Notes under the pieces: generated by a model
Database searches by the model: none
Told to the model about the DNA's origin: nothing
What the model saw: only the letters and a program-made list of their open reading frames with translations
Shown here: piece after piece, positions 4,457-38,433 of the stretch
Numbering within the stretch: position 1 is the first letter of the stretch
Layout of the letters: every line of letters starts with the position of its first letter
Made by a program: the position numbers and the translations under genes
From: a virus
Lineage: Duplodnaviria; Heunggongvirae; Uroviricota; Caudoviricetes
Virus record (IMG/VR): IMGVR_UViG_3300045988_147415
Direction: 5' to 3' (one strand)
DNA length: 63,014 nucleotides

Positions 4457-5224
4457 TCACCCCATAGATATCGAGGTTTCGGTAATAATACGTTTTGCGT
4501 CCAACTCCCATGCTGTGATCACGTCTGCAATCACACTTATCGGCGCTTGTGTGGCATAAATACGCTCTTCTCCAATTGGTGCCGAAACATCCGTAAATCC
4601 GACTTCTTTGGCATCCTGTATCGAGCAAATCAGCGGGACCGGGACACGAACAAGGTGAGTGGTTGCTTCAAATTGTGTACCTGTCATCAGGCGAAGCCGT
4701 GCGCCCAGCGAATTACACATCAGACTCATGGTCGCTTTATCAGTTGCCATTAACGTAACGTCATACGTCAGAATGGCCTGGGTGTATTCCAGTTCTGCTA
4801 AAGGCATTCCGGTATCCGGTTCGCAAAAACTGGCTACTTTTTTGCGGTCAATCTGCTGATCATCGTTGATATAATTGATATCCATAGTGCGTGAGATATT
4901 GACCAGGGGGAGAGCATCCCGGTTAATGTTCTGGTTTTCAGGTTTTCTCCCTTGCCCGGCATTTGCGCGACGAACTGCTTTAAGAAACTCGATCGAATTG
5001 TCGAAACGGGCCACATAGACACGCTCTGCTGGTGGACGATTCAGGAATGACGCAAAGCGTTTTTCTTCCGGCGCGGGGGCCACCAGTAAGATATCAGAAA
5101 AGATATTGCTGATTAGCGTAGCAAACGCGTTATCCACGCTTTCAAAGCCCGTGGTCTGGAATTTTCCTGTGCGTGAGGTTTGCCATTCACCTGTTCGCGC
5201 CAGGAGGGTTTTATTTGAAGTCAT
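4457..5224 (-). CDS. putative phage tail/baseplate protein
   Basis: 255-aa ORF in the same operon, overlapping start/stop with neighbours. Confidence 0.4.
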   Translation of the reverse strand: MTSNKTLLARTGEWQTSRTGKFQTTGFESVDNAFATLISNIFSDILLVAPAPEEKRFASFLNRPPAERVYVARFDNSIEFLKAVRRANAGQGRKPENQNINRDALPLVNISRTMDINYINDDQQIDRKKVASFCEPDTGMPLAELEYTQAILTYDVTLMATDKATMSLMCNSLGARLRLMTGTQFEATTHLVRVPVPLICSIQDAKEVGFTDVSAPIGEERIYATQAPISVIADVITAWELDAKRIITETSISMG

Positions 5225-6024
5225 TCGATCACTCCGTTTTGAGTCGTATCAAAATTCCTGGCAGGTATGCAGTAGTAAAGCGAACCAACATGCTGTGTGC
5301 CGTAGCTAAAAATACGGTGCACGTACCACCAGCGGCGGGCTACGCCGTTTACCATCTCTTCATTCCATTCAAGAATTGATCCGACGGGGACGTTATTTGC
5401 TGCAATACGCAGAATCAGAACATCATCGGTTAAGCCATCCTGCTCTCCGTCTGCGTCAATCGCATGGAAAGAGTCACGCCCGTCAGGGTTATCCAGCACA
5501 TAAACGATTTCAGGTTCCTGGTAAGTCAGTTCGCGTTGGTTGTTATCCAGTTCAGTGAATGACTCTTCTCCTGTTTCATCGCTGACTACCCCATATGTGC
5601 CAACATCTGGTCGATATAAGAGAGCCTGAAACGCGTCTGGGCTGGATTCAATAATCAGCATCCAGTCTGCGCGGATTTGGTCGTTAAAGGCTTTATGCCC
5701 GTTATAGCGTGCTTTTAGCTGTGGAGTTGGTTCTCTGCCAGCCAGGGAAGGTGGAAGTATGGCTATATCTGATTCGCCAGCATCCGGAGTAAGGCCACCG
5801 TTGCTATCAGCAAAATTATCATGGCTATCAGCTTTGGCGGCGGGTTGCTCTTCCAGAATGCTGAATGAATCCGATCCGGTATTGCCATGTTCCGGCGCGC
5901 CTCCTGCATTCGCTTCAATCGGCGCTGGCGTTTCTCTCTGCGTGCTGTCATGTTCTGACTCCTTACTTGCCAGGTTTGCATCGTCAGCAAACCATTCGTC
6001 AAAACGGCCCATAAGCATCCTCAA
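5221..6024 (-). CDS. hypothetical phage protein (first gene of baseplate operon; acidic N-terminal region)
   Basis: 267-aa ORF with GAGGA RBS; operon position only. Confidence 0.35.
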   Translation of the reverse strand: MRMLMGRFDEWFADDANLASKESEHDSTQRETPAPIEANAGGAPEHGNTGSDSFSILEEQPAAKADSHDNFADSNGGLTPDAGESDIAILPPSLAGREPTPQLKARYNGHKAFNDQIRADWMLIIESSPDAFQALLYRPDVGTYGVVSDETGEESFTELDNNQRELTYQEPEIVYVLDNPDGRDSFHAIDADGEQDGLTDDVLILRIAANNVPVGSILEWNEEMVNGVARRWWYVHRIFSYGTQHVGSLYYCIPARNFDTTQNGVIE

Positions 6025-6102
6025 AGGTCGATCTGTCAGGTATCGAAAGGAAGATTTTCTGGAGATTGTGATTTTGGATGAAGGAGGGGGAATTCATAAA
6101 AT

Positions 6103-6129
6103 GCACTTGCGCACAGTGCAACGGTGCGC
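6103..6129. promoter_or_regulatory. overlapping palindromes GCACTTGCGCACAGTGC / GCGCAC-N9-GTGCGC in the higBA promoter region (candidate HigA operator)
   Basis: Dyad symmetry immediately upstream of a TATAGT -10-like hexamer and the higB RBS. Confidence 0.3.
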
Positions 6130-6174
6130 TATAGTTATGGCATTCGGTAATCATCACGGAGGATCAAATGACTA

Positions 6175-6477
6175 ATGACCAAAAAAATTAACATAAAGGA
6201 TTTCAGGGATGCGTGGCTTGATGATTTTTTTGAATTTTCAACACCACATAGAAAGATACCTCCTGATATTCATATGACATTGTCACGGAAGTTGGACATT
6301 ATCAATGCCGCAACTACCTGTAAGGATTTAAGATCACCACCAGGTAATCGGTATGAGGAACTGTCAGGGAAGCTAAATGGCTATTCATCAGTAAGGGTGA
6401 ATAAGCAATATAGGTTAATTTTTAAGTGGGTTAACGGAAAGGCCGAGGACTTGTATCTCGACCCTCACAAATACTAA
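6175..6477 (+). CDS. higB: HigB-family toxin (plasmid maintenance system killer, RelE/ParE superfamily)
   Basis: DLRSPPGNRYEELSGKLNGYSSVRVNKQYRLIFKWVNG matches the conserved HigB core; toxin-first order with adjacent HTH antitoxin. Confidence 0.8.
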   Translation: MTKKINIKDFRDAWLDDFFEFSTPHRKIPPDIHMTLSRKLDIINAATTCKDLRSPPGNRYEELSGKLNGYSSVRVNKQYRLIFKWVNGKAEDLYLDPHKY

Positions 6478-6547
6478 AACAGATACCCGGTTACGGACCG
6501 GGTTCTGACCAGAGTCCACTTAATACGCACGCTAGTAAGGGCAAAAA

Positions 6548-6886
6548 ATGAAACAGGCAACCAGAAAACCGACGACCGTAGGTGATATCCTGCTGTACGA
6601 ATACCTGGAGCCGTTAGAGCTGAAGATCAACGAGTTAGCAGAAATACTTCATGTTCATCGTAACACCGTAAGTGCTCTTGTTAATAATAATCGTAAGCTA
6701 ACGATGGATATGGCATATCGCCTGGCAAAAGCATTCGATACTTCTGTAGATTTTTGGATTAATCTTCAGACCGCAGTAGATCTGTGGGAAGTCGAAAATG
6801 ATATGCGCGTTCAGGAAGAGTTAAGTCGTATCAATACTGCTGAAAAATTTATTTCTCAGCGGAACCTGAATAAAAAAGCAGCCTGA
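6548..6886 (+). CDS. higA: HigA-family antitoxin (XRE-type HTH)
   Basis: GDILLYEYLEPLELKINELAEILHVHRNTVSALVNNNRKLTMDMAYRLAKAFDTSVDFWINLQ is a classic HigA HTH; directly downstream of higB. Confidence 0.8.
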   Translation: MKQATRKPTTVGDILLYEYLEPLELKINELAEILHVHRNTVSALVNNNRKLTMDMAYRLAKAFDTSVDFWINLQTAVDLWEVENDMRVQEELSRINTAEKFISQRNLNKKAA

Positions 6887-6906
6887 TATAGTAAAACACA
6901 TACAAA

Positions 6907-6935
6907 AAGCCCACTTAGCAAGTGGGCTTTCCTTT
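6907..6935 (+). terminator. Rho-independent terminator after higA
   Basis: Hairpin AAGCCCACT-TAGCA-AGTGGGCTT followed by a T-rich tract. Confidence 0.5.
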
Positions 6936-6942
6936 GTAATTA

Positions 6943-7143
6943 ATGAACATTAAACCTATCCGTACAGAACAAGATTATGAGGCCGCACTGCGTGCGGTCG
7001 AACCGATGTTCGATAACGAACCGGAAATGAATACTCCGGAAGGTGATTTCTTTGAGGTTATGAGTCTTCTCATTGAGGAGTACGAGAAGAAACATTACCC
7101 AATTCAGCCACCATCACCTGTTGAATCTTTTAACTATCCATAA
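6943..7143 (+). CDS. short ORF resembling only the N-terminal (non-HTH) domain of XRE/HigA-type antitoxins; possibly truncated
   Basis: MNIKPIRTEQDYEAALRAVEPMF...EEYEKKHYPI is the usual N-terminal segment of longer antitoxins but the ORF stops before any HTH. Confidence 0.4.
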   Translation: MNIKPIRTEQDYEAALRAVEPMFDNEPEMNTPEGDFFEVMSLLIEEYEKKHYPIQPPSPVESFNYP

Positions 7144-7164
7144 TAAAAGTAATCAGGATAAGCT

Positions 7165-7893
7165 ATGATGTCAGAAAAAGTTAAAGATAATTCGTCTATA
7201 AATGAAACAGAACTAAAATCATTTTCTGAAATAATAAAAGATAAAATATTTAACAAGGTTTTTGCATATGTTGTCATTTCTTTTCTAATCCTTAACTGGA
7301 AGGATATTTTAATTATATTAAAGTCAAAGGACGACATCCTATATACATTATCTATTGTTTTTGTTGGTGGTAATGTACCGTTCTTTGATAATTGGATTGT
7401 ACCCCCGTGGGTTTGTCACGTTGTAATCCCATTTATTTATGGAGTATTTGCATCTGTATTAGCTCCTATTCTCACACTGACGATATCTAAGCTAACAAGT
7501 AAATTATACACTGAAATAAGATATTTAGATGAAGTTGCTGATTATGATAAAAGAATAGAATTGCAAAGAAAGAAAACAAAGTTAAATCAAGCAACCAATG
7601 ACGCTAAATATTCAAAACAAATCTTAGATGAAAATGAAAATAAACTTAATGACTTGGTTACGAAACAGCGAGAAATTTGTGGCGCGATAAAACTATTGCA
7701 TACTGATGTTGGCAGTATTATTGAACTATATAAAAATAAGGGGGTTAGCATTGAATCTCCGCAAGATTTATGTGATTTTATAGTCGCTATAAAAAGCACA
7801 TCATTCTATAATGATGACAAGCATTTTAATAAATTGGTGTCTGATATTTCCAGTTTGTTTGATAATACTGGAATTGATCTTTCAAAAAAATGA
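7165..7893 (+). CDS. AT-rich cargo gene: membrane protein with cytoplasmic coiled-coil domain (candidate abortive-infection/defence protein)
   Basis: Strong drop in GC over the ORF; three hydrophobic helices then a Lys/Glu/Asn-rich coiled-coil region; own terminator. Confidence 0.55.
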   Translation: MMSEKVKDNSSINETELKSFSEIIKDKIFNKVFAYVVISFLILNWKDILIILKSKDDILYTLSIVFVGGNVPFFDNWIVPPWVCHVVIPFIYGVFASVLAPILTLTISKLTSKLYTEIRYLDEVADYDKRIELQRKKTKLNQATNDAKYSKQILDENENKLNDLVTKQREICGAIKLLHTDVGSIIELYKNKGVSIESPQDLCDFIVAIKSTSFYNDDKHFNKLVSDISSLFDNTGIDLSKK

Positions 7894-7899
7894 AAGCCC

Positions 7900-7940
7900 A
7901 GCATAAACTACTAGGCTATGTGTGGTTTATGCTTTTTTTA
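7900..7940 (+). terminator. Rho-independent terminator after the AT-rich membrane-protein gene
   Basis: Hairpin AGCATAAAC...GTTTATGCT followed by TTTTTTT. Confidence 0.5.
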
Positions 7941-9120
7941 CATACTCCATGAACATTTTTTCAGCTTGTGCTGGTGGTGTTCCAGCCATGACAAGCGCAT
8001 CAATGAACGCCTGCTTCTTCAGTGCGAACTGATCGGCAAGGCGTTGCTGAAGCTCCTTGTTTTTCTGTTTCTCACGTTGCAAGGCCGCTTCTTTTGCTGC
8101 CGCCCGTTTTTTCTGTGCATCTGACAACTTTCTGGCCTTGGTCAATTGGTCACGTAGTTTGTCGATCTTGCCGTTGTCCTTTGCCAGTTTTGTACTTAAA
8201 GCTGCCTGGCGCTTCTGATAGAGCCTCCATTCGCGTTTGGCGGCTTCAACGTTCGTTTTACTGCTACGATTGCGATTAAACTCCTTCTCGTCTTCTTTTG
8301 AGAAGTGTTTAGTTGTACGGCGGCGATCGTCACCAAATGCAATTTGCGTTGCAGCCTTTTGTAGCGCACGAGCAATACTCATTTGCCAACTGGCGGACTG
8401 TAACCGCGTCATTGAGTGGATCACGTGTTTACAGGCGACGCCTTGCAGCTTCGGGTTGCGAACTTTTGGATAGGCGTATTCTTTTGGCGGTGCCAGGGCA
8501 AAGTTACCCGCAGTGGCGATGTAACGATACCAGTATTGATGACGACCACAGTCACAATCGAAAGACACTCGCCCGGCGCACAGTGATTTAGTGATTTTGA
8601 GAGCTGATTTATCGTCTTCTGCGATGTCATCAACCATCTGATCCCATTCTTCAAAGCGTATCCTGACGATATGGTGCTGGTGGACGGATATATCCGATGC
8701 TTCTACGCGGATATTAATCACATTGTGGCGAAGAGATACGGGTGTAGCTCTTTTGATACCAGATCCGTCATCCACGGCGTTATTTGCACGCTTAATATCG
8801 ATTGCCTGGCTGGATGCCACCAGCTGGGCGTATGTGATGCCAGCCGTCTTGCTGTCATATTTTTCGCGCGTTTTACTCCGTAGCTTTTCGAAACCTTTCA
8901 GGTCGTCTCGCGTGAAGAACGTGCCGCCTTTTTTCTTCCCTAACTTGAGAATATCTTCGGCGGATTTGTTCCTCAGTCTACCTGGCGTCAGCGTCCGGTG
9001 AGCTTGTCGGCGCTTACGGGTTTGTTCTTTCCTGATAAGGTCGAATAAACGCGTGAAGTCCTTAGAGGACAGGCCGTCAGTGATATAGCGCCCGTCCTGG
9101 TTTTTCAGGAAATCAGGCAT
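7927..9120 (-). CDS. SWIM zinc-finger protein with Lys/Arg-rich coiled-coil C-terminus
   Basis: FDCDCGRHQYWYRY...GVACKHVIH fits the CxCx(n)CxH SWIM motif; 397 aa. Confidence 0.55.
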   Translation of the reverse strand: MPDFLKNQDGRYITDGLSSKDFTRLFDLIRKEQTRKRRQAHRTLTPGRLRNKSAEDILKLGKKKGGTFFTRDDLKGFEKLRSKTREKYDSKTAGITYAQLVASSQAIDIKRANNAVDDGSGIKRATPVSLRHNVINIRVEASDISVHQHHIVRIRFEEWDQMVDDIAEDDKSALKITKSLCAGRVSFDCDCGRHQYWYRYIATAGNFALAPPKEYAYPKVRNPKLQGVACKHVIHSMTRLQSASWQMSIARALQKAATQIAFGDDRRRTTKHFSKEDEKEFNRNRSSKTNVEAAKREWRLYQKRQAALSTKLAKDNGKIDKLRDQLTKARKLSDAQKKRAAAKEAALQREKQKNKELQQRLADQFALKKQAFIDALVMAGTPPAQAEKMFMEYVKKA

Positions 9121-9442
9121 TTTCTATCTCCGGTTCCGCGCTTGCGTAATCACGGATCTTGTTCCTTAGCCATGCCACATCAGGAAGAGTTAACGTGGTC
9201 CCTGCGGGCATTTCTTCCATTTCTGACTCATGGCCCACCAGCACCCGGAATACCCAGCGCAAATCTGCATTGCCATACGCCCTGTAGGCTGCAAGGTCTG
9301 AACGATATACTTCATCAATCTTTATCGTGTACTGGAAATTATCAGAGTGATACTCCGATACCCGCTTAATCATTTCCTGGTGAAACAGCGCACGAAAAAT
9401 ATCGTCTTCAATGTACCTATCGTCGAGTCTGCTATAGCCCAT
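9113..9442 (-). CDS. hypothetical protein
   Basis: 109-aa ORF overlapping the start of the SWIM gene by 8 nt. Confidence 0.45.
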   Translation of the reverse strand: MGYSRLDDRYIEDDIFRALFHQEMIKRVSEYHSDNFQYTIKIDEVYRSDLAAYRAYGNADLRWVFRVLVGHESEMEEMPAGTTLTLPDVAWLRNKIRDYASAEPEIENA

Positions 9443-9635
9443 AACAAAGCCTCTCAGTCATAACCTGGGGGAAACTGTATGCAGGGTGTGAAATGCGAGA
9501 AACAGACAGGCCACCAGTTCAGGGGGATGGGGTTCATAAATCCCCTCACTGGTGACAAGTGACTTTCATTAATCTTTATGCGGGGGCCAGCTTCATTTGC
9601 TGGCATTAGATTAAAAATCAAACGGAGTAAATGAC

Positions 9636-9770
9636 ATGGATGTTATCTTCGAATTATTAATGCTAATTGATCTGTTTATGAACGCTTCATTGACCACTCA
9701 AATACTCGCGTCAATATTTTTGTTACTCTTCTACCTGGTATTGAGGGAGTTAACAAAGCTACTAATGTGA
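9636..9770 (+). CDS. possible small hydrophobic peptide (44 aa)
   Basis: ATG with GGAG about 11 nt upstream; MDVIFELLMLIDLFMNASLTTQILASIFLLLFYLVLRELTKLLM; convergent with the next gene; not in the ORF track because under 60 aa. Confidence 0.25.
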   Translation: MDVIFELLMLIDLFMNASLTTQILASIFLLLFYLVLRELTKLLM

Positions 9771-12470: not shown

Positions 12471-13412
12471 TTAACTAACAATCCAGTCCGTAGCAACAAC
12501 ATCCTCTGGAGCTAAATCAATCGCATGGATTTTCCCATCCCGGATGGTGCGCCAGTGCTTTCGTGATCCACCTTCGGGCCATACCCATACACCTTCAGGC
12601 CAGGATGCTCGACGGCATACGATTGCATACCCTGTTTTAATCCTCTCTCTCGCGGTATGCAACGACAGGTTTGCCTTTGGACTTTCAGGTACAGGATGGT
12701 GAATGGCCTGAAACAGCCCCATTTTGGGGTGATACCAGCGTTTATTACGTGGTTCTGCCTCCGACATCACCTGCTTAAAGGCTTTCCGGAAGGGGGCCAG
12801 GGCCACAATGGAGCGTCGCGCAAGCAAACCATCTGGAGTTAAAAACTCATGCGTATCGGTGGGAATCCGGAAAGCGTTGACCAGGTTGCGACATTTGGCT
12901 TCAGTCAGGCCACATTTCGCCGCCAGCTGGCGGTAGCCAATGTAGCCTTCCGGAATATTGCCTTTCTTGATTTGCTCGACGGTTTCAGCGACTTCGGACA
13001 CTTGTGCCGATACTTCGGCTACCTGGGCATTAACGGCGTTGATCCGGCGTTCATGCTCAAGATGCATTTGCGCCATTTCAGCCAGGATTTCGGCTTTTGA
13101 TTTTAACTGTACCCGGGCATTCTCCAGTTCGCGCCAGCGGTCCACCAGCCGGGCGGTAAATTCGGGAGAAAGCTGTGCGACGACAATGATACTGTCACGC
13201 TTGCCTTGTTCGCCTTCAAAGATGTAAGCCTTGGAAAATCGACGAGGGCCAACTGATTGTTTATTTTCAATTTCCTCAATTTGAGGAAATTGAATGACAC
13301 CACCTTTAGTTAATACTTCAATGGTACGCTTCACATTATCATGACGCTTACCTACCAGTTCCGCGATCTCAATACTGGTCATTGTCGCTTTTTGAGAGAT
13401 GGACAGATTCAT
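12471..13412 (-). CDS. ant: phage antirepressor (N-terminal Rha-type domain, C-terminal Ant domain), immI-like copy 1
   Basis: TSIEIAELVGKRHDNVKR Rha-type N-terminus; 313 aa; paralog of the 51842..52549 gene; preceded by an icd-like ORF as in P1 immI. Confidence 0.75.
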   Translation of the reverse strand: MNLSISQKATMTSIEIAELVGKRHDNVKRTIEVLTKGGVIQFPQIEEIENKQSVGPRRFSKAYIFEGEQGKRDSIIVVAQLSPEFTARLVDRWRELENARVQLKSKAEILAEMAQMHLEHERRINAVNAQVAEVSAQVSEVAETVEQIKKGNIPEGYIGYRQLAAKCGLTEAKCRNLVNAFRIPTDTHEFLTPDGLLARRSIVALAPFRKAFKQVMSEAEPRNKRWYHPKMGLFQAIHHPVPESPKANLSLHTARERIKTGYAIVCRRASWPEGVWVWPEGGSRKHWRTIRDGKIHAIDLAPEDVVATDWIVS

Positions 13413-16215: not shown

Positions 16216-16693
16216 AGGTTTAACGCCCGCACAACTGGCAGAGCGTAACGCTGAGTATGTAACGGAAATTTCCCGACTTGAGAAAGCGTGTGCTGCGCTG
16301 GCGGCGGAGAATGCTGGGCTGAAACATGCAATGGCTGTAACTCTTGAGCATGTGTCGGTCACGGATGCAGGGCAGGCCGGAGTTGCTGCAATGATTATCA
16401 ACGATGCCCTGCACCACAGCGAAACTCCAGCCACCGATGCTTTTCTGGCTGAAATTCGTGCGACGGCTCGCAACGAGGGGATTAACTATACCGCAAGCCG
16501 TCTTGCTGCTGCTTTCAACCACGGATTTATCAATAAGTCTTTACGTGAAGTTTTCGACGTTACGCGCATGATTCTGTCAGCGAAAGAAGAGTTGGCTAAT
16601 GAACCGCACCCGATTGATGGCCTGTCCGGTGAATATGCGGAGAAATCCCTTGAAGAATGGGCGGAACAGATTCGCAAAGGAGCTGACAAGTGA
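16205..16693 (+). CDS. hypothetical protein (coiled-coil; paralogous C-terminal domain shared with 17109..17894)
   Basis: AALAAENAGLK coiled-coil and shared ...TPATD.FL.E...AR.EG....A.R.LAA...GFI... segment. Confidence 0.45.
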   Translation: MKSEGLTPAQLAERNAEYVTEISRLEKACAALAAENAGLKHAMAVTLEHVSVTDAGQAGVAAMIINDALHHSETPATDAFLAEIRATARNEGINYTASRLAAAFNHGFINKSLREVFDVTRMILSAKEELANEPHPIDGLSGEYAEKSLEEWAEQIRKGADK

Positions 16694-17100
16694 AGAGGAT
16701 GATTTTTGTAGCGGCATTGCTGACCATTACCCAACAGGCGCAGGCTTCAGCAGTTATTGTGGCATCTACCGCCGCGACCACGGCTGCTGTAGCTGCTGCG
16801 AACTCTGCGAATATCGCAAACCAACAGTCACAGCGTGCTGCCAATGCATCAGCCAGTGTTCACCCGATCGCCATTAAGACCGGCAAGAAAAATATAGGTT
16901 TCATAACATGCGGCAAACGTTCTGACGAGGCTGTAGGTTCACTTGGATGTACGGTATATGGGGATAGTGAGAGTAGAGAAATTCCATGGAAAACGTGGCC
17001 CGGATACGTTCTCGGATCGAAGCTCCCTGCCAGCTACGAAGTAAATGCCGTATCGTTTGATCACTATAACGGCGTGGCAACTGTCTATTTTACATACTGA
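16690..17100 (+). CDS. secreted protein of unknown function
   Basis: Signal peptide MKRMIFVAALLTITQQAQA; Ala-rich low-complexity region; translationally coupled. Confidence 0.45.
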   Translation: MKRMIFVAALLTITQQAQASAVIVASTAATTAAVAAANSANIANQQSQRAANASASVHPIAIKTGKKNIGFITCGKRSDEAVGSLGCTVYGDSESREIPWKTWPGYVLGSKLPASYEVNAVSFDHYNGVATVYFTY

Positions 17101-17108
17101 GGCTCCGC

Positions 17109-17894
17109 ATGAAATTCTCCAAATTTTCTGAGTTGGTGAATCGTATTTTGTCCAACAACCACAGCCATCGTCGCGATATGGATGTAACGATCGTTGTTCA
17201 TTCGCCTGGCAGCATTGGTTCAACACCCTCAGTTGAGGTTCAGTCAATTCACGCTGGTTTTGATTGGGATTCCGGGAAAGTGCTGATTTTCCCTGCACAG
17301 CCACTGACTACGCTAACACCAGAACAGATTACTGATATTACTGATAGTGTGCGCAAAGGTCAGTCCTGGCACGCATATCAGGAATACAAGAAGCATAAAG
17401 AGCAGTTGGAAAAATTATCGATTGAACTTGATACCGCAAAACAGCGCATTGCAGAGCTGGAGGGTAATCGCGCGGCGCTGGCTGCGGAGAATGCGAGACT
17501 GAAGGCGATATGTGAGGATCGCCGCACGTTCATTATGAATGGCGTGCAGCTTGGTTTTATCAAGGTGCCAACAGTGGAAATAGATCCAGCTCTTGAAACA
17601 ATTCGTATCGCCCTATCACCACAAAAAACCACTCCTGCGACCGACACTTTCCTGGATGAAGTGAAGACTGAAGCACGCAAGGAGGGCGCTTACTTTGTGG
17701 CGAACAGGATGCTGGCTGCTTGGGAAGCTGGTTTTATTGATGATACTGCGAAGAACGCCGCGGATATTGCCCGGATGATTCTTACCTCTACTGAGTTTAT
17801 GGCTAATGCGCGGGAAGGCGATTTTGACCGCTCATTCTCTGATGGGGTTCTCGAAGATATCGCCGAACAGCTTAGAAAAGGAGGTAAACAGTGA
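17109..17894 (+). CDS. hypothetical protein (coiled-coil; paralog of 16205..16693)
   Basis: Shares the AALAAENARLK coiled-coil and C-terminal domain with 16205..16693. Confidence 0.45.
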   Translation: MKFSKFSELVNRILSNNHSHRRDMDVTIVVHSPGSIGSTPSVEVQSIHAGFDWDSGKVLIFPAQPLTTLTPEQITDITDSVRKGQSWHAYQEYKKHKEQLEKLSIELDTAKQRIAELEGNRAALAAENARLKAICEDRRTFIMNGVQLGFIKVPTVEIDPALETIRIALSPQKTTPATDTFLDEVKTEARKEGAYFVANRMLAAWEAGFIDDTAKNAADIARMILTSTEFMANAREGDFDRSFSDGVLEDIAEQLRKGGKQ

Positions 17895-18139
17895 GTAATA
17901 CCGCACGACTACAGCTTGGTTTTTCACCGCTATCAAAAACCATCGTGTTGGCAAAAATGCGTGACTTAGGGGATGGAACAAAACGTCGTGTCGGCAATGA
18001 TCGCGGTCGTGATGTAACCAACGAGGCCGCACAACTCGTTTGGCATCTAGTCATGGCTGAAGGCGGTGAAATTAATTGGGAGCTGGATGATGGTTCTCGC
18101 ATGGTATTGAAGGCAGAAAAGCAGGAGCCACCACAGTGA
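17891..18139 (+). CDS. hypothetical small protein
   Basis: 4-nt overlap with the upstream stop (translational coupling). Confidence 0.4.
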   Translation: MSNTARLQLGFSPLSKTIVLAKMRDLGDGTKRRVGNDRGRDVTNEAAQLVWHLVMAEGGEINWELDDGSRMVLKAEKQEPPQ

Positions 18140-21020: not shown

Positions 21021-21816
21021 CTATCAAGAACTGCGCGAGGCGGCGGAACAGGCAACGCAAGATGAATGGGTAGCATATATTTTGCCGGGTCATAACGGCA
21101 TTTATCCTGCGCGCACGTCTGAGGGTAGGCATTGCGGATACTTTATTGACTGGCCTGGCATTGATGGACAAAGGAATGCTGGTGCTAATGCCCGTTATAT
21201 CGCGTCTATCCCACCAAAAGTTGCGCTGGCACTCCTGGCCGAAATTAAGTGCCTGGAAGACACAAATATTGATGCCATGTGCCGAATTGCAGAACTGGAA
21301 AAACAATGCGCTGAATGGGAGCGAAAAGCATTAAGCAACTTTGAAGAGTGTGCTGCTATGGCTGAACGTATCGAAGAGTTGCAGACAAACTCTGCACCAG
21401 GTTCGTTTGGCATCATCGGTGAAAACATTCGAACACAGGATAATCGAATAACGTCAGACCCTATGTTTTGTGTGTATCAAAAGCGCGAAATCGTTGTTGA
21501 TGCTGATTATGACTATGACCGGATTGTCTGGGTTGATGAAGATGGCAATGAAGCCAATAAACGCCAAAGTCGTCGTCTCGAACTACTTCACGAAAACTTT
21601 CGAGAGCCACCAGAAAAATGGCGGCGCGTTGCTGTGAAAGATATTGATGAATTCGTGACCTGCTGTTTCACCGAGCAGGGTTGTAAAGACTACTTGGCAG
21701 CCAATGGTCACAATCTTCGCTTGCCTTTTATATATGTAAAAAGCGGTTTCAGGAACGCTGAATATATCGGCATAAGAAACTGGCTTGCTGGCATTCGCAT
21801 CAAAGGAGGTGAGTAA
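21007..21816 (+). CDS. ead/Ea22-like family protein
   Basis: N-terminal ELREAAEQATQDEW...ANARYIASIPPKVALALLAEI typical of Ea22-like prophage proteins. Confidence 0.55.
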   Translation: MIKINYQELREAAEQATQDEWVAYILPGHNGIYPARTSEGRHCGYFIDWPGIDGQRNAGANARYIASIPPKVALALLAEIKCLEDTNIDAMCRIAELEKQCAEWERKALSNFEECAAMAERIEELQTNSAPGSFGIIGENIRTQDNRITSDPMFCVYQKREIVVDADYDYDRIVWVDEDGNEANKRQSRRLELLHENFREPPEKWRRVAVKDIDEFVTCCFTEQGCKDYLAANGHNLRLPFIYVKSGFRNAEYIGIRNWLAGIRIKGGE

Positions 21817-21992
21817 TGCGTGTGGCATGTATCGGCTTGTTACCGTACCCGACTCGTTTTTGGGCTTCTGCGCTAATTGCAAAGCCACATGTCCTGATGG
21901 CTGACAACATCATCCCGGCACCAAAGCGCCGCCATACCGGTATTGCAGCGGCACGACGAGCAGCAAAGAAACGCAGGAGAGCAAAACGATGA
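21816..21992 (+). CDS. possible small basic protein (58 aa)
   Basis: AGGAGGTGA RBS; TAATG overlap with the upstream stop and ATGA overlap with the next start; below ORF-track cutoff. Confidence 0.3.
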   Translation: MRVACIGLLPYPTRFWASALIAKPHVLMADNIIPAPKRRHTGIAAARRAAKKRRRAKR

Positions 21993-22391: not shown

Positions 22392-22837
22392 CCACTATTA
22401 CCAAAGAACGTGCGGAGATTAAATCATTCATCACAGGCTTCCTGAGCGACCCAGCGCACGATAACCAATCTTCAGACAGCCTGCTTGCCAATGTGTTTCG
22501 TATCGCGCTGGCATCGCTGGAAGCAGAACCGATGGCATGGCGATATCGCTACGTGAAAAAAGGCATTACGGACTCACAGGGGGAGCCGTGGGTTGGTGAC
22601 TGGAAATATGTACCGACAAAAGAGGATTGCAACGACAGACCGAACTATGAAATTCAGGCGTTATTCACTGCCCCGCCTGTGCCACTGACACCAGAAGGAT
22701 TGATTAAAGCAGTGCGCTTCTATGAACAGGTTAAGCGTGAGAATCCGCCAGTCGAAACCGGAGCATGGAAAGACGCTGTTGACTGGGTGCTCAAAGAGGC
22801 TTGCCAGGCTGTAAACATTGGTACCAAAGGAGATTGA
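22388..22837 (+). CDS. hypothetical protein (paralogous N-terminal motif with the next gene)
   Basis: Shares ALASLEAEP and TAPP(V/A)P segments with 22839..23681. Confidence 0.45.
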   Translation: MTTITKERAEIKSFITGFLSDPAHDNQSSDSLLANVFRIALASLEAEPMAWRYRYVKKGITDSQGEPWVGDWKYVPTKEDCNDRPNYEIQALFTAPPVPLTPEGLIKAVRFYEQVKRENPPVETGAWKDAVDWVLKEACQAVNIGTKGD

Positions 22838-22838
22838 T

Positions 22839-23681
22839 ATGACCACTTTCACCGACAAAGAACTGATTAAAGAAATCAAAGAGCGCATAGGCAGCCTGGA
22901 CGTTCGAGACAATATTGAGCGCCGTGCTTATGAAATTGCACTGGCATCGCTGGAAGCAGAGCCTATTGGTGAAGTTTCAGAGAAGCGACACGGCCTTGTT
23001 ATGGATGGAACGGTAGACCTTGGCGGGAAATCAACTTATCGCATCATTAAGGGAGAAAAAGCGATGAAGTTGTTGCCGTTGGGGACGAAGTTTTATACCG
23101 CACCGCCAGCGCCGGTAATACAGGCTGATGTCGCGCAAGCAATTGAAAATCTCAAGCAGAAATTAGTGGAATGCAATCGCTATAACTACTGCGCAGATGC
23201 AGTTAAGGGCGTAGAGGATGCCTGCCACGCTGCCATGCTTCAGGGTATCCAACCTGTAAGCCAAACTTACAACTTGCCAGAATTAATCGAAGGGATGGAA
23301 GTTTCCATTGATGTAAGCACTTGTGATGCTGATTTAGGTAATCGCTATTTCGGCACCGTCACCGAGGCGTTAGAACTTGATACAGCCAAGAATGGTTACA
23401 TCCTCCTGGTTCAGGACGCAGAGCCAAACTTCGATGTAAATGGCAACTCTCCGGGAACTCCGGATAGTTGGATAAGCTGTAGTGATCGAATGCCTGAAAA
23501 GGGCCAGAACGTGCTTATTTCGGTGAATTTCGATAGCTCTCTGGTTGAACCGCTAATATGCTCCGCACGCTATACCGGAAGCACCTTTCGGCGCGGAGAT
23601 GCAACGATTAAGCCGGGTAATGGTATTGAGCAAGCAACTCACTGGATGCCGCTACCGGAACCGCCGCAGGAGGCGAAATGA
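22839..23681 (+). CDS. hypothetical protein with DUF551-like C-terminus
   Basis: C-terminal W(M)PLPEPP motif; AAAGGAG RBS at internal ATG. Confidence 0.5.
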   Translation: MTTFTDKELIKEIKERIGSLDVRDNIERRAYEIALASLEAEPIGEVSEKRHGLVMDGTVDLGGKSTYRIIKGEKAMKLLPLGTKFYTAPPAPVIQADVAQAIENLKQKLVECNRYNYCADAVKGVEDACHAAMLQGIQPVSQTYNLPELIEGMEVSIDVSTCDADLGNRYFGTVTEALELDTAKNGYILLVQDAEPNFDVNGNSPGTPDSWISCSDRMPEKGQNVLISVNFDSSLVEPLICSARYTGSTFRRGDATIKPGNGIEQATHWMPLPEPPQEAK

Positions 23682-23938
23682 TGGATGTAAAAGAGAAGGT
23701 TTTGCAGGTGATGCGTTCCCGGGCTGCCCTGCAAGATAAAGCTCTCGGCGGGGAATATCCATTCAGGATGGCAACCTGGAATTTGCGGTTGGCAATGGAG
23801 AAGGAATTTCCTGATGAAGAATGGCGTTCGGCAGATTTGCGCAAAATTCTTATGGAGATTGCTAAAGACGGAACAGTATCTAAAGATAAACATGCCAGCC
23901 GGATTGGTCAGGCAGTATGGAGACTGGAGGAGCGGTAA
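23678..23938 (+). CDS. hypothetical small protein
   Basis: ATGA overlap with the upstream gene. Confidence 0.4.
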   Translation: MMDVKEKVLQVMRSRAALQDKALGGEYPFRMATWNLRLAMEKEFPDEEWRSADLRKILMEIAKDGTVSKDKHASRIGQAVWRLEER

Positions 23939-24237
23939 TGGCTAACCTGCAACTTGCCGTCAAAGGTGAATACTTCGATGCCATGATTCGCGGGGAGAAA
24001 ACGGAAGAGTATCGCCTGTGCAATGACTACTGGAATAAACGCCTCGTTAATCGTAAGTATGACCGCCTGATTATCACAAAGGGATATCCGAAGCGCGACG
24101 ATTCCAGCCGCAGACTTGACGTCCCGTATGACGGATATGAAATCAAGACAATCACACATCCACACTTCGGAGATAAACCGGTAAAGGTGTTCGCGATAAA
24201 AGTAAAATTAACACGGAGTAATTATGTGGTGCGGTAA
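23938..24237 (+). CDS. ASCH/DUF3850-like small protein
   Basis: LAVKGEYFDAMIRGEKTEEYR pattern; TAATG-coupled start. Confidence 0.45.
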   Translation: MANLQLAVKGEYFDAMIRGEKTEEYRLCNDYWNKRLVNRKYDRLIITKGYPKRDDSSRRLDVPYDGYEIKTITHPHFGDKPVKVFAIKVKLTRSNYVVR

Positions 24238-24256
24238 TAATCATGGCGGAAGCCAG

Positions 24257-24517
24257 ATGATACTTACCGAATATACGTTCGACCACAAAACCAATAAATC
24301 ACGTTCAGTATATTTGCTTCGGCACAATAGCCGCGTAAGAAATACCGTGCTGGAGCAAAATCTGACTGTTGAAATGGATAATTTGGGAAACTTCAAGCCA
24401 ACAATATCGCTTGATGATTTTCCTCGTGGTTTAAGCGAAAGAGAAGCAATGCTGAAATTAGCAGAATGGTTACAAAGATTGAGCATTGCTATTGAGGATA
24501 ACTGGATTCAACCATAA
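24257..24517 (+). CDS. hypothetical small protein
   Basis: Start ambiguous (24224 or 24257). Confidence 0.35.
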   Translation: MILTEYTFDHKTNKSRSVYLLRHNSRVRNTVLEQNLTVEMDNLGNFKPTISLDDFPRGLSEREAMLKLAEWLQRLSIAIEDNWIQP

Positions 24518-24541
24518 TGAAAAACAGAAAGAAAGATTGCT

Positions 24542-24751
24542 ATGGCAACATTTAGTAAATTCGCAGTAATTATGATTTTATTAATCCCCCTCACTGTTAC
24601 AGCAGGGGAACAGCAACATTGCACAAAAGAGAATGAACACCCTTTCATCGTTATTCAATGTGATGACGGAACGGTGACAGTGGTTAATGTAAGAAATGAC
24701 CGTGTAGCTGTATGCCGTAAAGGCGAACCATGCAAGGAGATAAAGCTATGA
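24542..24751 (+). CDS. small secreted protein
   Basis: Signal-peptide-like N-terminus (FAVIMILLIPLTVTA) with several Cys. Confidence 0.4.
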   Translation: MATFSKFAVIMILLIPLTVTAGEQQHCTKENEHPFIVIQCDDGTVTVVNVRNDRVAVCRKGEPCKEIKL

Positions 24752-25527
24752 CCAAAATCACTAAAGAGCGTATATCAGAGATTATTTCCCGTATCGAAAT
24801 GTATGGTCACGGTGCTGGATATACGGCAGATGAAGTATTGGCACTTGCCCAAATGGCTTTGGCGGCTTGCAAAGATGATAAAAAAATGAAGCTTATCGAC
24901 TTGTTAGTGAAGGAGCTGCCTAAGTGCGGCGGGTGGCCTGATGGAATGAGTTATTGTTACCTACCCAGTGTCAATTTAATGGCACCATGCGCGACTTTTG
25001 CTTTTGGCTCAGACCTCAAAAAAGACACTTTCTTTGGGCGCAATTTTTGTTGTGAGATTGAGCTTCCAATTGGTGACCTTGATAGCGATGAATACCAGTC
25101 AGTTGTCACTCGCGAACAATACGAATCAGCTCTCATAGCGTCGCAGAAAGTCGAGTTCAATGGTGATGAACCTGAAAGTAAGGCTTACAAGTTAGATTTT
25201 GAGCAATTAGATTTTGAGCAATGGCTGGAGCAGCAACGCGGGGAAATCGATGTGGACTGCGGTTGTGTGTCTGCGGAAACATTCATGCACTGGTTGCGGG
25301 TAGCTTATGAGGCTGGGAACCATCCGGTTCTTCCGGATAGTTCCCAACAAGCGCCCAGGAAAAGCGTAAAAACCACTCTGGAAAGAGGCTATCTTGAGGC
25401 CGCATTAAAGATTAAGCCGGGCCATACGCTAGGCGTCATTGATGCCATGTTGGTTCATGAAATGGCTAAGGCTTTATTGCCGCTGGTGGCTGATAAACAT
25501 GAGGCGGGCCATGCCAACGAAAGCTGA
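24748..25527 (+). CDS. hypothetical protein
   Basis: AAGGAG RBS; ATGA overlap with the upstream stop. Confidence 0.45.
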   Translation: MTKITKERISEIISRIEMYGHGAGYTADEVLALAQMALAACKDDKKMKLIDLLVKELPKCGGWPDGMSYCYLPSVNLMAPCATFAFGSDLKKDTFFGRNFCCEIELPIGDLDSDEYQSVVTREQYESALIASQKVEFNGDEPESKAYKLDFEQLDFEQWLEQQRGEIDVDCGCVSAETFMHWLRVAYEAGNHPVLPDSSQQAPRKSVKTTLERGYLEAALKIKPGHTLGVIDAMLVHEMAKALLPLVADKHEAGHANES

Positions 25528-25843
25528 GTTACAGGCTCGCGTAGAGATTCTTGAAAAAGAAAATGCGAGTCTAAAAGGAATGCTGGCGCGGGCGGAAAGG
25601 GAATTATAAGGCAAATTATTGCCAGAAGAGCTGCCACCAGCAGATATATCTGATCGAGTGTCCTGGTGGATGAAGTATTTCCGTGCACCGTGGGAGGCGT
25701 TTTGGTGCTACGACCATCGCAGATGGTGTGATGAGCTTGATAGCAGTTTCCCCTATTTTGCGGAAGGGAACTCTTGCCCTGAATGTAGGAGTTAATGATG
25801 ACCGGCGATAACGCGTTTGCACCAAAGGTGTCTCTTTAATGTA

Positions 25844-26566: not shown

Positions 26567-26946
26567 TGAGGCATATATCACCGGAAGAACTTATTGCGCT
26601 TCATGATGCGAATATAAGCCGCTACGGCGGCCTGCCGGGAATGTCAGATCCGGGTAGGGCAGAGGCCATTATCGGGAGAGTTCAGGCCAGAGTTGCCTAC
26701 GAAGAGATCACCGACCTTTTCGAAGTCTCCGCCACCTACCTGGTGGCTACGGCGAGAGGGCATATATTCAATGATGCCAATAAGCGTACCGCGCTAAACA
26801 GTGCGCTGCTATTTCTACGCCGTAACGGTATACAGGTATATGATTCTCCCGTGCTGGTGGAGCTTACAGTGGGGGCTGCAACTGGTGAAATCCCCGTATC
26901 TTCAGTAGCGAAAAAACTACGTGAACTATATGGTTCCAATATTTGA
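26566..26946 (+). CDS. doc: Doc toxin (death-on-curing, Fic fold)
   Basis: [25 protein letters not shown]...[12 protein letters not shown] matches P1 Doc; TAATG overlap with phd. Confidence 0.9.
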
Positions 26947-26950
26947 AAAG

Positions 26951-26974
26951 AAGCCCGCTCAACCAGGCGGGCTT
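26951..26974. terminator. hairpin shared by convergent doc and terminase-paralog genes
   Basis: AAGCCCGC-TCAACCAG-GCGGGCTT; on the minus strand it is followed by a U-rich tract. Confidence 0.4.
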
Positions 26975-26981
26975 CCTACTA

Positions 26982-28088
26982 TCACTCAATGATTTTTTCT
27001 GCTGTCAGCCAGCTAATTTCTTGCCTGTCTTTCGGCGGTTTTAGCATGTGGGCGTATTCAGCGACATTCTCCCACGGAATTGTTTTTGCCCACTCAACGA
27101 TAGCATTGTGATCTGCAGTGAAGAGTGGAATGGTGTGCGATTTCAACCACTCTAATGTTGTAACGCCATGTTTTTTTGCGTGGTGCTGTGCATGATGCCG
27201 GGCTATCACTTGTAATGGCATTGTCCATTCACTACCATCAGGCATCGAAAAGCGCATTGTTTTCGGCATATCTGATTCAAGAACAGCCTCCCGAATACCC
27301 GGGAACTCACCAAGAACCATGCGACGGTAATCATCGCCGATTTTACCACCATACATTTCTGCAATCCCATCAAGATAATCTTGAGTAAGCAGAGGTGATT
27401 CTTCTGCGTTCAGCTTGATGGCTGTATAAATACCACATGGATTTTCTTCAGTTTTTGCACGACCATGATGGGAATCGTAAAAGTGTCCATGTTCCTCCTC
27501 TGGAGGAGCAGACATTAAAAGTATACGTGAATCGTCACTCACTAAAGATGCTCTTAACATCCCGAATAGCCGATAGCTTACAAGAGCCGCGTCCATAACA
27601 ATGATCAAAAGATGTTCAGCATAATATCCGGCTACATCTTCCTCATAATTTAGGCGATATGGTTTAATTTCGCAGCCCCAAGATTTTTGGTAACGATGAT
27701 TGAGGCCATTTTGGTCGATTTGAAAATACTCTCCCAGTAATGGCGCTTTTGTTTTAGCTTTCTCCCAATACATATTCATGAGTGAGAGAGTTACCATTCC
27801 ATTACGCTCAAAGTCTGGAGCGACCATGACCGTTTTAGACTCAGGCATCAGGATCGTATAAAGGATACAAATGATAGCCAGAGCAGACTTATGCCCTATC
27901 CCAGTCGGTGTGGTAACGCTGACTGCTGAACCTTTTTGTTGAATCGCCTCAACAATTAATTTTTGCTGGTGGGTTAACTTAACCCCCATCAACTCTTCTG
28001 CTGCTAATGCCCAGTCATGGCTATATTTGCTTACCAGCTCTATCCACTCTGGTAATTCGGTGATGTTTTTAGGCGTCAGCATCAGCAT
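26982..28088 (-). CDS. terminase large-subunit ATPase-domain paralog with degenerate catalytic motifs
   Basis: Aligns with the pacB-like protein over about 250 aa (THQQKLIVEAIQ, HFYDSHHGRAKTEENP) but Walker A is GIGHKS rather than GTGKS and Walker B is VMDAAL rather than ILDEAS. Confidence 0.55.
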   Translation of the reverse strand: MLMLTPKNITELPEWIELVSKYSHDWALAAEELMGVKLTHQQKLIVEAIQQKGSAVSVTTPTGIGHKSALAIICILYTILMPESKTVMVAPDFERNGMVTLSLMNMYWEKAKTKAPLLGEYFQIDQNGLNHRYQKSWGCEIKPYRLNYEEDVAGYYAEHLLIIVMDAALVSYRLFGMLRASLVSDDSRILLMSAPPEEEHGHFYDSHHGRAKTEENPCGIYTAIKLNAEESPLLTQDYLDGIAEMYGGKIGDDYRRMVLGEFPGIREAVLESDMPKTMRFSMPDGSEWTMPLQVIARHHAQHHAKKHGVTTLEWLKSHTIPLFTADHNAIVEWAKTIPWENVAEYAHMLKPPKDRQEISWLTAEKIIE

Positions 28089-28875
28089 CCTCCGCTACCT
28101 CTGCTTCCACATCAGCCACGGCTTCATCGGACGGTTCTTCTTTGGCCTGCTCTGCAATCGCCGCACGGCATTTCGCCCTGGCTGTAGCGATTGCTTCAGC
28201 TCGCACATCATCAGGAATCGTTGACGTGATATACATATCCAGTTCTTCGGCGCGGAACACTGTTTGGTCCAGATATTCGCGTAGCATCCAGGTAAATTCG
28301 AAATCACACGCGATAATTTCTGCGCTACCTTCTGCACCATTTGGGAAATGAATAAATGCCTGTTTAGCCAAACCGATAACACGACATGCGGTTGCCAAAA
28401 CAGCGACAACCAGGTTTACATTTTCACACGCTACGGGCTGATTAACGCCGGAGATTACTCCATTTAACTGTCGGTTATATGGAAGGTAGTTTGAGATGCG
28501 TTCTACGCGCCATGTGCCAGTCAGGCTGCCATTTTTAAAGATAATTGGTGTAACGGATAGCCCAAGCTCGCGTATAAGTCGTTGCGCTATAGCAGGATCA
28601 TTAAACAGGTCTAATGCTACACATTCGAAAGACTGCGCAAGGGCAAACAGTTCTTCCAGCGAGTAGTCTTTGCCCCTGGCGGTGATGTAACGACGAACGC
28701 CGCTGTCCGCATCACTCCATATAGCTACGCCATGCTCTTCATTCAGTTCTTCATTAAAGCCGAGATACGTCATGATAGTGCGTTCAATCGTGTCAAACGG
28801 CAGTGACATGTCGGCGTTAACAGCCACCAGCAGGCCATTACGCAAGCGGTATTGAATTGCTTTAGTATTTTCCAC
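28069..28875 (-). CDS. hypothetical protein with acidic C-terminal tail
   Basis: 268 aa; C-terminus EAVADVEAEVAEDADADA. Confidence 0.45.
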   Translation of the reverse strand: MENTKAIQYRLRNGLLVAVNADMSLPFDTIERTIMTYLGFNEELNEEHGVAIWSDADSGVRRYITARGKDYSLEELFALAQSFECVALDLFNDPAIAQRLIRELGLSVTPIIFKNGSLTGTWRVERISNYLPYNRQLNGVISGVNQPVACENVNLVVAVLATACRVIGLAKQAFIHFPNGAEGSAEIIACDFEFTWMLREYLDQTVFRAEELDMYITSTIPDDVRAEAIATARAKCRAAIAEQAKEEPSDEAVADVEAEVAEDADADA

Positions 28876-38040: not shown

Positions 38041-38220
38041 GTACTCTTCCGGCTGTCACACCGAATCGCCAGGATGGTGAGTCCTCGGTCCGACGATATG
38101 AACGGGGCTTGCACATTCCGGCTACCTGGTTTGTTGCCTGAGCTAGGGGAAAAGGTAACCCCTTTAACGTCACCAGACCGCTAACGACGCATGTGCCAGA
38201 CGCCGTGTTACAACCAAATA

Positions 38221-38296
38221 TGGTGGCCCCTACCGGATTTGAACCGGTGACCGTGCGATTATGAGTCGCCAGCTCTAACCACTGAGCTAAAGGGCC
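38221..38296 (-). tRNA. tRNA-Ile (anticodon CAU, ileX-like; Met cannot be excluded)
   Basis: 76-nt cloverleaf GGCCCTTTAGCTCAGTGGTTAGAGC...GGCGACTCATAATCGC...GGTTCAAATCC...GGGGCCACCA, closely resembling E. coli ileX. Confidence 0.8.
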
Positions 38297-38433
38297 AGAT
38301 TACTGTTAATTCCGCTTACGCTTTTTGCCAGAACCGCGTAAGGCTTTTGCCGCTTGCTCGGCCCCATATGCAACCACCAGCAAAAATAAAAATGTCCAAC
38401 CAGGGTTCTTATCGGCAAACGCCCAAAAATTCA

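Follow-up and report, generated by a model that had tools for sequence, protein, structure and literature searches.

We analysed positions 6,943 to 7,893 of a 63,014-nucleotide stretch of Caudoviricetes DNA (IMG/VR virus record IMGVR_UViG_3300045988_147415, henceforth referred to as ‘the window’), which hold a short open reading frame (ORF) of 66 codons followed by an AT-rich gene for a 242-aa membrane coiled-coil protein (MCC). Comparison with related elements indicates that these positions make up the distal half of an accessory (‘moron’) island that is fixed in the lineage of Escherichia phage D6 and lies on the opposite strand to the two tail genes, 7 and 25, that enclose it. The reading that we tentatively favour, at a little under an even chance, is that the short ORF is the stump of a HigA antitoxin gene and that MCC is constant, autonomous membrane cargo of the prophage with a putative role in conflict between phages.

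An island fixed between two tail genes of D6-type phage-plasmids

Window positions 5200-9200 are 94.6% identical to Escherichia phage D6, and the stretch 6100-7950 recurs in 112 plasmids of PLSDB, which are ~90 kb long, come from E. coli, Salmonella and Shigella and are nearly all non-mobilizable; in E. coli plasmid pE2863-2 this stretch is 100% identical. Because of the D6 match, the recurrence in ~90-kb plasmids and the identity to pE2863-2, we take the element to be a D6-type phage-plasmid, a relative of P1 and not P1 itself. An earlier reading made from the sequence alone (henceforth referred to as the ‘sequence-only reading’) had framed the element as P1-like; the kinship with P1 stands, whereas the match to D6 sets the element apart from P1 proper. 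Compared with the whole D6 genome, the median identity of the window in 200-bp steps is 0.99. Around the island, identity amounts to 1.00 for 6501-6901 but only 0.66-0.76 for 7201-7801, and it is back at 1.00 from 8001 onwards.

The genes on either side are homologues of P1 gene 7 (D6 orf69; 5221-6024, minus strand) and P1 gene 25 (D6 orf74; 7927-9120, minus strand), so that the island lies between two tail genes and not, as had been proposed, between structural and regulatory modules. In P1, gene 7 abuts gene 25 directly, and both in P1 and in Cronobacter phage JK004 the two genes are only 3 nt apart with no island between them. The comparison with relatives lacking the insert, which the sequence-only reading had called for, thus bears out that the block is cargo relative to P1. 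In every D6-like locus examined (22 from IMG/VR, D6 itself, the 87-kb metagenomic scaffold L006, the divergent E. coli lineage L035 and the Enterobacter plasmid L037) a toxin-antitoxin (TA) module and MCC occupy the gap between genes 25 and 7 on the opposite strand, and an MCC-family gene is present at the site even in lineages with tail genes only 68-82% identical. Gene 25 (coverage of at least 80%) was found in 99 complete E. coli genomes, and 95 complete genomes match the segment 6887-7950, which comprises MCC and the preceding piece of the gene known in D6 as orf72.

The marked AT-richness noted for the membrane gene was confirmed: the MCC gene has 29.1% GC (22.6% at third codon positions), compared to 47.6% for the window, 48-50% for the flanking tail genes and 38-42% for the higBA genes upstream and the 66-codon ORF. 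However, the claim that the genes were recently acquired did not survive, as the site is occupied in essentially all D6-like elements, including the lineages with tail genes 68-82% identical, and low GC is common to all alleles (29-33% in E. coli D6-like elements and 35-40% elsewhere, with flanks of 45-52%). Since every MCC allele is AT-rich, composition cannot date the acquisition, and we rejected recent acquisition read from GC content. No direct or inverted repeats hinting at a transposon or an integration site flank the island, and an Rfam scan of 5900-8200 gave no match above threshold.

Copies of MCC also occur away from this site. Solitary copies are found in decayed P2-like prophage remnants with integrase and Ogr genes (L007 and L008), a Citrobacter copy (L034) is cut short by IS21, and the MCC query has matches in 54 plasmid records from Klebsiella in PLSDB. 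The one record examined (L036), the non-phage K. pneumoniae IncFIB/IncU plasmid pHNAH8161B-2, has the island amid insertion sequence elements (L036:5010-7800). This copy begins 50 nt within gene 7, ends with the MCC stop and is 96.8% identical to an Enterobacter/Klebsiella D6-like element, from which it was copied as a block, with MCC split afterwards; its HigBA genes are intact and its MCC is interrupted by an insertion of ~1 kb. In two otherwise typical D6-like loci, MCC is split into 147 and 83 aa (L029:5938-6668) or shortened to 209 aa (L024:3811-4634), and it is therefore dispensable for persistence of the element. A further island, in another P1-like phage (L033, a Logan contig of ERR10227508), lies between bplB-like and pmgC-like genes instead of genes 7 and 25 and reads TacA-TacT, a strong terminator, a 68-aa ORF with a GTG start and an MCC homologue (L033:5627-6691). 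This homologue is frameshifted in a C7 run at 6533-6539, so that disrupted MCC genes are found in L029, L024, the Klebsiella plasmids, L033 and L034. The 68-aa ORF corresponds to the N-terminal domain alone of K-12 HigA (5ifg_B residues 23-74, E=9e-12), and the 11-mer TATCCATAATA stands upstream of MCC both in L033 and in the window (7134-7144). L033 is an independent parallel to the arrangement in the window.

The 66-codon ORF as an apparent relic of an orphaned antitoxin gene

Both ORFs, at 6943-7143 and 7165-7893 on the plus strand, were found where the sequence-only reading had placed them, and the HigB/HigA pair upstream is complete, as it had stated: a higB toxin gene of the Rts1/Vibrio type (6175-6477, plus strand; PF05015, Pfam E=4.4e-35) is followed by a higA antitoxin gene (6548-6886, plus strand; TIGR02607, NCBIfam E=7.9e-30; HTH_3, E=7e-11), whose product is the partner of PF05015 HigB. 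A strong hairpin at 6904-6932 (z=-4.8), terminator-like on both strands, closes this cassette and ends 10 nt before the ATG of the 66-codon ORF.

The counterpart of this ORF in D6, orf72, is intact and encodes 119 aa with an N-terminal domain and a C-terminal helix-turn-helix (HTH) domain (HTH_3) at residues 63-115. Its residues 6-112 align with residues 24-132 of E. coli K-12 HigA (5ifg_B, E=8.7e-8), in which the HTH is also C-terminal (PMC7984235). From before the ATG to position 7104 the window is 100% identical to D6 orf72. Identity then falls across a putative recombination or deletion junction (7105-7164), and the ORF runs through ~30-40 nt of diverged orf72 sequence to its stop, so that residues 1-54 are identical to those of D6 orf72 and the last 5-12 residues are unrelated read-through. 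The half of orf72 that encodes the HTH is gone from the window, together with the downstream spacer and the hairpin that precedes the membrane gene in other alleles. Given the layout of D6 orf72, the window ORF is therefore the non-HTH, N-terminal segment of a longer HigA-type antitoxin, as the sequence-only reading had recognised, and Pfam detects no HTH domain in it. The PADLOC model PD-Lambda-2_B matches the 66-aa product at model positions 1-65 of 402 (E=2.5e-16) and the D6 orf72 product at positions 1-119 (E=4e-43). The identical copy in pE2863-2 is labelled a pseudogene, ‘missing C-terminus’, by PGAP (RefSeq). Overall, these comparisons point to a non-functional remnant of a K-12-type HigA antitoxin gene, one that is already annotated as a pseudogene.

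How the antitoxin gene came to be orphaned is suggested by the architectures read from the 95 complete E. coli genomes that match window positions 6887-7950. In type C, a HigB gene of family PF09907 is followed 4 nt on by orf72 and then by a gene for a 243-aa ‘coiled-coil domain-containing protein’, and the Shine-Dalgarno sequence (GGAG) of orf72 sits inside the upstream PF09907 higB gene. Type B, to which D6 belongs, has a PF05015 higB gene, higA, a terminator, an intact orf72 and the membrane gene. Type A, the type of the window, accounts for 51 of the 95 genomes and has the order of type B with orf72 cut short. The PF05015 higB gene is 100% identical in every type A and type B E. coli locus compared, whereas PF09907 HigB occurs only in the type C relatives and has no counterpart upstream in the window. 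Because of the type C order, we take orf72 to encode the cognate antitoxin of PF09907 HigB. Homology across the types begins ~7 nt before the orf72 ATG (~6936), just past the hairpin at 6904-6932, and the Shine-Dalgarno sequence was therefore lost together with PF09907 HigB; the GGAG of type C is missing before the 66-codon ORF.

Consistent with decay after the loss of the toxin gene, orphan copies of orf72 carry independent lesions: Q69 is replaced by a stop codon in L022, and the L025 copy is frameshifted by +1 near codon 52. The nine loci that keep a PF09907-type HigB, in contrast, all have an unbroken orf72 or homologue of it. The TA partner at the site varies between PF09907 HigB/HigA, a distant HigB/HigA, ParE/HTH_3 and PF05015 HigBA with the orphan, and in every architecture the membrane gene comes last. 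In the series of events that we propose, HigB(PF09907)-HigA-MCC would be the older form of the island; in the lineage of the window, a PF05015 higB-higA cassette, terminator included, would have displaced PF09907 HigB and the ribosome-binding site, leaving HigA orphaned, and a later recombination or deletion would have taken the HTH half of the orphan and the hairpin before MCC. The locus thereby offers a clean natural series of TA turnover, from a cognate pair through a swapped toxin and an orphan antitoxin to decay by nonsense mutation, frameshift and deletion. The two genes had been called a ‘gene pair’ in the sequence-only reading, a view that these comparisons do not uphold: the 66-codon ORF appears as a decaying orphan of the replaced PF09907 HigB, and the membrane gene is probably independent of it.

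We also considered whether the 66-codon ORF could be alive, encoding a selected HigA of N-terminal domain only that binds PF09907 HigB without binding DNA and acts either in partnership with MCC or as an anti-addiction decoy aimed at chromosomal HigB or at rival D6-like plasmids. The N-terminal domain of E. coli HigA contacts the toxin in structure 5IFG, and the truncation in the window falls at the domain boundary, where the nonsense codon at position 69 in L022 would likewise leave the N-terminal domain; L033 holds its own ORF of this domain alone before an MCC homologue, after a different TA pair and a terminator, and PHROGs contains a 66-residue family (phrog_10398). The frame is, moreover, open in all ten type A sequences. 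However, only three nucleotides vary among these ten copies, which gives no signal of selection either way, so that selection on the ORF cannot be judged from them. The ORF has no Shine-Dalgarno sequence and starts directly behind a terminator, the L025 frameshift falls inside the N-terminal domain, and the read-through tail and the PGAP call are those of a broken gene. We therefore regard a live ORF as improbable and retain the relic as the preferred reading.

MCC as a predicted two-span inner-membrane protein

The MCC gene (7165-7893, plus strand) belongs to the uncharacterised family phrog_8191. Hydropathy of the product shows two strong transmembrane (TM) segments, at residues ~32-52 and ~82-108, and a weak one between them at 58-72; the positively charged residues that precede TM1 and follow TM2 are consistent with both termini lying in the cytoplasm (Nin-Cin). 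An AlphaFold2 model built from 13 sequences (pLDDT 74.8) shows residues 58-72 as a short helix and hairpin, followed by one continuous helix at 81-191 and two short C-terminal helices; a run on three MCC sequences gave a pLDDT of 50 and was unusable. The protein thus divides into the membrane core, a variable outward loop or hairpin (64-84), a coiled coil of ~80 residues (~110-190) and a C-terminal helical domain (199-234). We infer a two-TM inner-membrane protein of Nin-Cin topology with a cytoplasmic coiled coil through which it may oligomerise. The description of MCC as a membrane coiled-coil protein was thereby upheld, whereas the three TM helices assigned to it were reduced to two.

Remote homology and structure prediction, which had been suggested as a check on 7165-7893, yielded no informative sequence or fold match. 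MCC has no match in Pfam, NCBIfam or PADLOC; with PADLOC 2.0 at E<=0.1, no family was hit by the MCC alleles of the window and D6, nor by the window HigB. PHROGs returned only families of unknown function, and a PDB sequence-profile search returned only coiled-coil noise. A two-TM pore fold of the KcsA/NaK kind was tried and rejected, as the best Foldseek hits (E>=2.3, probability 0.08) were non-significant; a selectivity-filter motif like that of KcsA/NaK is not conserved in MCC. A HMMER profile search of 1.84 billion representative proteins found 43 relatives at E<=1e-3, which are 200-320 aa long, share the N-terminal membrane core, have divergent coiled coils and contain no Pfam domain beyond coiled-coil noise. 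A word-indexed protein search returned only E. coli alleles and a few metagenomic relatives, no relative was found in the species-representative genomes of GTDB, and we found no account of the family in the literature on D6-like elements and defence or on HigBA tripartite and transmembrane systems. MCC is thus a rare, unannotated family, and it has an unusual population signature.

Divergent MCC alleles under purifying selection

MCC alleles are 24-97% identical to each other in loci that are otherwise 97-100% identical. Across 13 alleles, mean pairwise column identity is highest (0.66-0.72) at residues 25-63, which span TM1 and the motif NW..IL.L.KSK.DI..TL (in short, NW..KSK..TLS), the best-conserved part of the protein, and is 0.55 in TM2, 0.35 in the loop at 64-84, 0.33 in the C-terminal domain and 0.24 in the coiled coil. 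Within the allele group of the window (eight distinct alleles) the pN/pS of MCC is 0.33-0.36, compared to 0.05-0.26 for neighbouring genes. Of the 15 amino-acid positions that vary, 8 fall in codons 64-108, where pN/pS is 0.92, whereas the C-terminal domain has no nonsynonymous and three synonymous variable codons. Because of this pattern along the gene, we take MCC to be a functional protein under purifying selection in which replacements focus on the outward loop and TM2. All ten type A sequences compared have an unbroken MCC gene, and none of them has a cognate HigB or a whole HigA. In our proposal, the outward loop, the coiled coil and the C-terminal domain would diversify, and recombination in the conserved flanks would exchange whole alleles as cassettes.

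The same data bear on whether the whole region 6943-7893 is non-functional debris, with the long ORF open by chance in AT-rich DNA. The gene upstream is a pseudogene and no promoter was found, as debris would have it. Nevertheless, AT-rich DNA is rich in stop codons and a frame of 242 codons is open here, and the family is conserved over 24-97% identity with a pN/pS of 0.33 and a C-terminal domain free of nonsynonymous change; we consider debris very improbable.

Transcription signals and proposed independence from the TA module

In the window, MCC starts 21 nt past the stop of the relic, with AGGA placed 6 nt before the ATG at 7165. Its own terminator, which had been predicted, was confirmed as a 12-bp stem (7900-7933) followed by U7 (7900-7940, plus strand; z=-2.7 compared to shuffled sequence) that extends into the 3′ end of gene 25, which is convergent with MCC. 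A promoter scan gave 8 sites, no excess over shuffled sequence (6.5±2.7). In other alleles, a GC-rich hairpin (GCGGTCTGGATGACCGC and a T-run) separates the HigA-type antitoxin gene from MCC (L001:3604-3640, L003:3868-3905, L006:5890-5915 and equivalents) and is a strong terminator in L006; this hairpin argues for at least partial transcriptional insulation of MCC. It is followed by a conserved CATAAAAT motif, a possible -10 element. Both the hairpin and the CATAAAAT motif are deleted or altered in the window. That HigA regulates or neutralises MCC was considered and rejected, since MCC is intact where HigA is destroyed.

A side observation concerns the tail genes themselves. The P1 late operon 26-25-7-24-6-5 is contiguous, and the D6-like island, with hairpins at both ends (6904-6932 and 7895-7917), splits it; the second hairpin directly follows the gene 25 stop and is terminator-like on the minus strand (7917-7895). 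Gene 7 and the genes downstream must therefore use read-through, antitermination or a separate promoter.

The apparent insulation of MCC is also relevant to a rival explanation, namely a tripartite toxin-antitoxin-X module in which MCC would be the third working part and act with the neighbouring TA pair as effector, sensor or accessory factor. Toxin, HTH antitoxin and MCC do keep this order across very different MCC alleles and TA families, with PF09907 HigB/HigA in L003, L023 and L026-30, a distant HigB/HigA in L028 and L037, ParE/HTH_3 in L006 and TacA/TacT in L033, and the island was copied whole, along with the adjoining 50 nt of gene 7, into Klebsiella IncFIB plasmids. A precedent exists in PD-lambda-2, which consists of a HigB-like gene, a gene with a HigA domain and a required third gene (PMC9519451). 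However, the TA partners at the site are not mutually homologous, and in other alleles a hairpin and T-run stand between antitoxin and MCC. In the commonest type, MCC is intact and under purifying selection with no cognate HigB and only a stump of HigA. In addition, solitary MCC genes exist, and the Klebsiella plasmids keep the TA pair while MCC is interrupted. Taken together, a tripartite module is unlikely, and an autonomous MCC remains the reading that we prefer.

A candidate role in conflict between phages

MCC has the traits of a moron: its site is empty in P1 and JK004, it lies on the strand opposite to its neighbours, it has 29% GC and its own terminator, and it is broken in some relatives. 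Its placement on the opposite strand, its hypervariable alleles, its dispensability and its copies in other mobile elements are compatible with exclusion or abortive infection, which the sequence-only reading had thought plausible, and MCC is a reasonable candidate for a phage-exclusion or defence gene. In this proposal, MCC would be expressed from the plasmid prophage and act against other phages, either by superinfection exclusion, keeping incoming DNA from crossing the inner membrane, or as an abortive-infection effector that oligomerises through its coiled coil and perturbs the membrane, and its variable parts would set specificity. A bolder form of the proposal holds that MCC founds a new family of single-gene membrane exclusion or abortive-infection proteins in which the hypervariable loop, TM2 and coiled coil set ‘exclusion groups’ among rival D6-like elements and other phages, and that the ORF of the HigA N-terminal domain, which recurs before MCC in the type of the window and in L033, is a functional toxin-binding or regulatory partner; this we think rather improbable.

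Several points weigh against a role in phage conflict. MCC is not known to have anti-phage activity, it matches neither PADLOC, Pfam and NCBIfam families nor an informative fold, and the promoter scan gave no convincing sigma-70 promoter between the higA terminator and MCC. A gene of 29% GC may be silenced by H-NS. The overall pN/pS of MCC is below 1, and the clustering of replacements rests on eight distinct alleles and a calculation that takes them as free of recombination. Defence hot spots usually hold unrelated systems from one genome to the next, so that the constant presence of one family here could equally mean a function of the element’s own. The TA module found so regularly just before MCC might also be functionally coupled to it, in which case MCC would not be autonomous.

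A function of the element’s own is the substance of a further alternative, in which MCC would serve the biology of the element or its host, in lysis timing, virion assistance or DNA entry, membrane stress or plasmid maintenance. It would fit with a gene that is universal at one site in the D6 lineage, embedded in a block of tail genes and conserved in its membrane core. It fits poorly with the placement of MCC on the strand opposite to the late tail operon, with its strongly deviant composition and with its absence from P1 and JK004, which have the same tail module. MCC is also interrupted in the otherwise D6-like L029 and L024, and D6 already encodes a holin and an antiholin of P1 type. Extreme allelic divergence with sharp boundaries is, moreover, unlike that of housekeeping phage genes. 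We hold such a function to be unlikely and retain, tentatively, autonomous cargo with a putative role in phage conflict.

D6-like phage-plasmids occur widely in E. coli, Shigella and Salmonella and are present in ~2% of the complete E. coli genomes searched; in a recent survey, recognised defence systems were almost absent from them (bioRxiv 10.1101/2025.09.12.675607). A gene that is universal at one site and has alleles down to 24% identity in genomes that are 99% identical is a typical seat of undiscovered functions in phage-phage conflict. MCC is small and easily testable, which makes it a sensible experimental target; should it have no exclusion phenotype, the finding would come down to an ordinary pseudogene beside a hypothetical protein.

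Variable segments elsewhere in the window

Apart from the island, other segments of the window are sharply diverged from D6 (63-85% identity compared to a median of 99%), namely 1501-2301, which corresponds to the DNA methylase region of D6 (orf63/orf64), 13101-13400, 38201-38400 and 39001-39600; a D6 counterpart is absent or poor for 16463-18133, 21039-21959, 22392-25828 and 26937-28123. In the next gap over, between gene 26 and mat, L018 holds an extra HigA-like HTH gene of 97 aa (L018:8394-8687) and L025 a HigA-like ORF of 93 aa followed by an ORF of 99 aa that weakly matches the HTH antitoxin of L006 (L025:9136-9713); the ORFs of the window in this gap (9443-9770) are all short. These extra genes point to a second hot spot for small cargo beside the first.

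Comparison with known systems

The closest known relative of the stump is the K-12 HigA antitoxin (PDB 5IFG/5YCL), the partner of PF09907 HigB (YgjN). D6 orf72 has the same layout of N-terminal domain and C-terminal HTH; the copy in the window, in contrast, has lost the HTH domain, the cognate HigB and the Shine-Dalgarno sequence and stands behind a PF05015/TIGR02607 higBA cassette.

For MCC, similarities are of a general kind. HK97 gp15, T4 Imm and P22 SieA are small inner-membrane exclusion proteins from accessory genes of prophages or phages, independent of late genes and dispensable, and the gene for HK97 gp15 lies within a block of tail genes. By these general descriptions MCC resembles them in position, strand, composition and dispensability. 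It differs in its long, predicted cytoplasmic coiled coil and its C-terminal domain, neither of which those proteins are known to have, and it has no sequence or fold similarity to them that we could find. As a membrane-embedded protein that could oligomerise, MCC is also reminiscent of lambda RexB and of the TM effectors of CBASS and Pycsar, although it lacks the partner sensor gene of those systems and any homology to them.

Two systems are similar in gene order. In PD-lambda-2, the B component is a fusion of HigA and a peptidase and is the toxic one (PMC9519451, Vassallo et al. 2022). The N-terminal, HigA-like part of PD-Lambda-2_B matches orf72, and type C loci also consist of three genes with a HigB-like gene first; however, neither orf72 (119 aa) nor the relic (66 aa) has a peptidase domain, and the third gene at our locus encodes a membrane coiled-coil protein with no PADLOC match in place of a P4-antitoxin-like product. 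The toxin-antitoxin-chaperone systems of the HigB-HigA-SecB-like kind share the order HigB, HigA, third gene. In marked contrast to these, the third gene of the D6-like island encodes a membrane protein and not a SecB-like chaperone, is separated from the antitoxin gene by a hairpin and persists without the TA pair.

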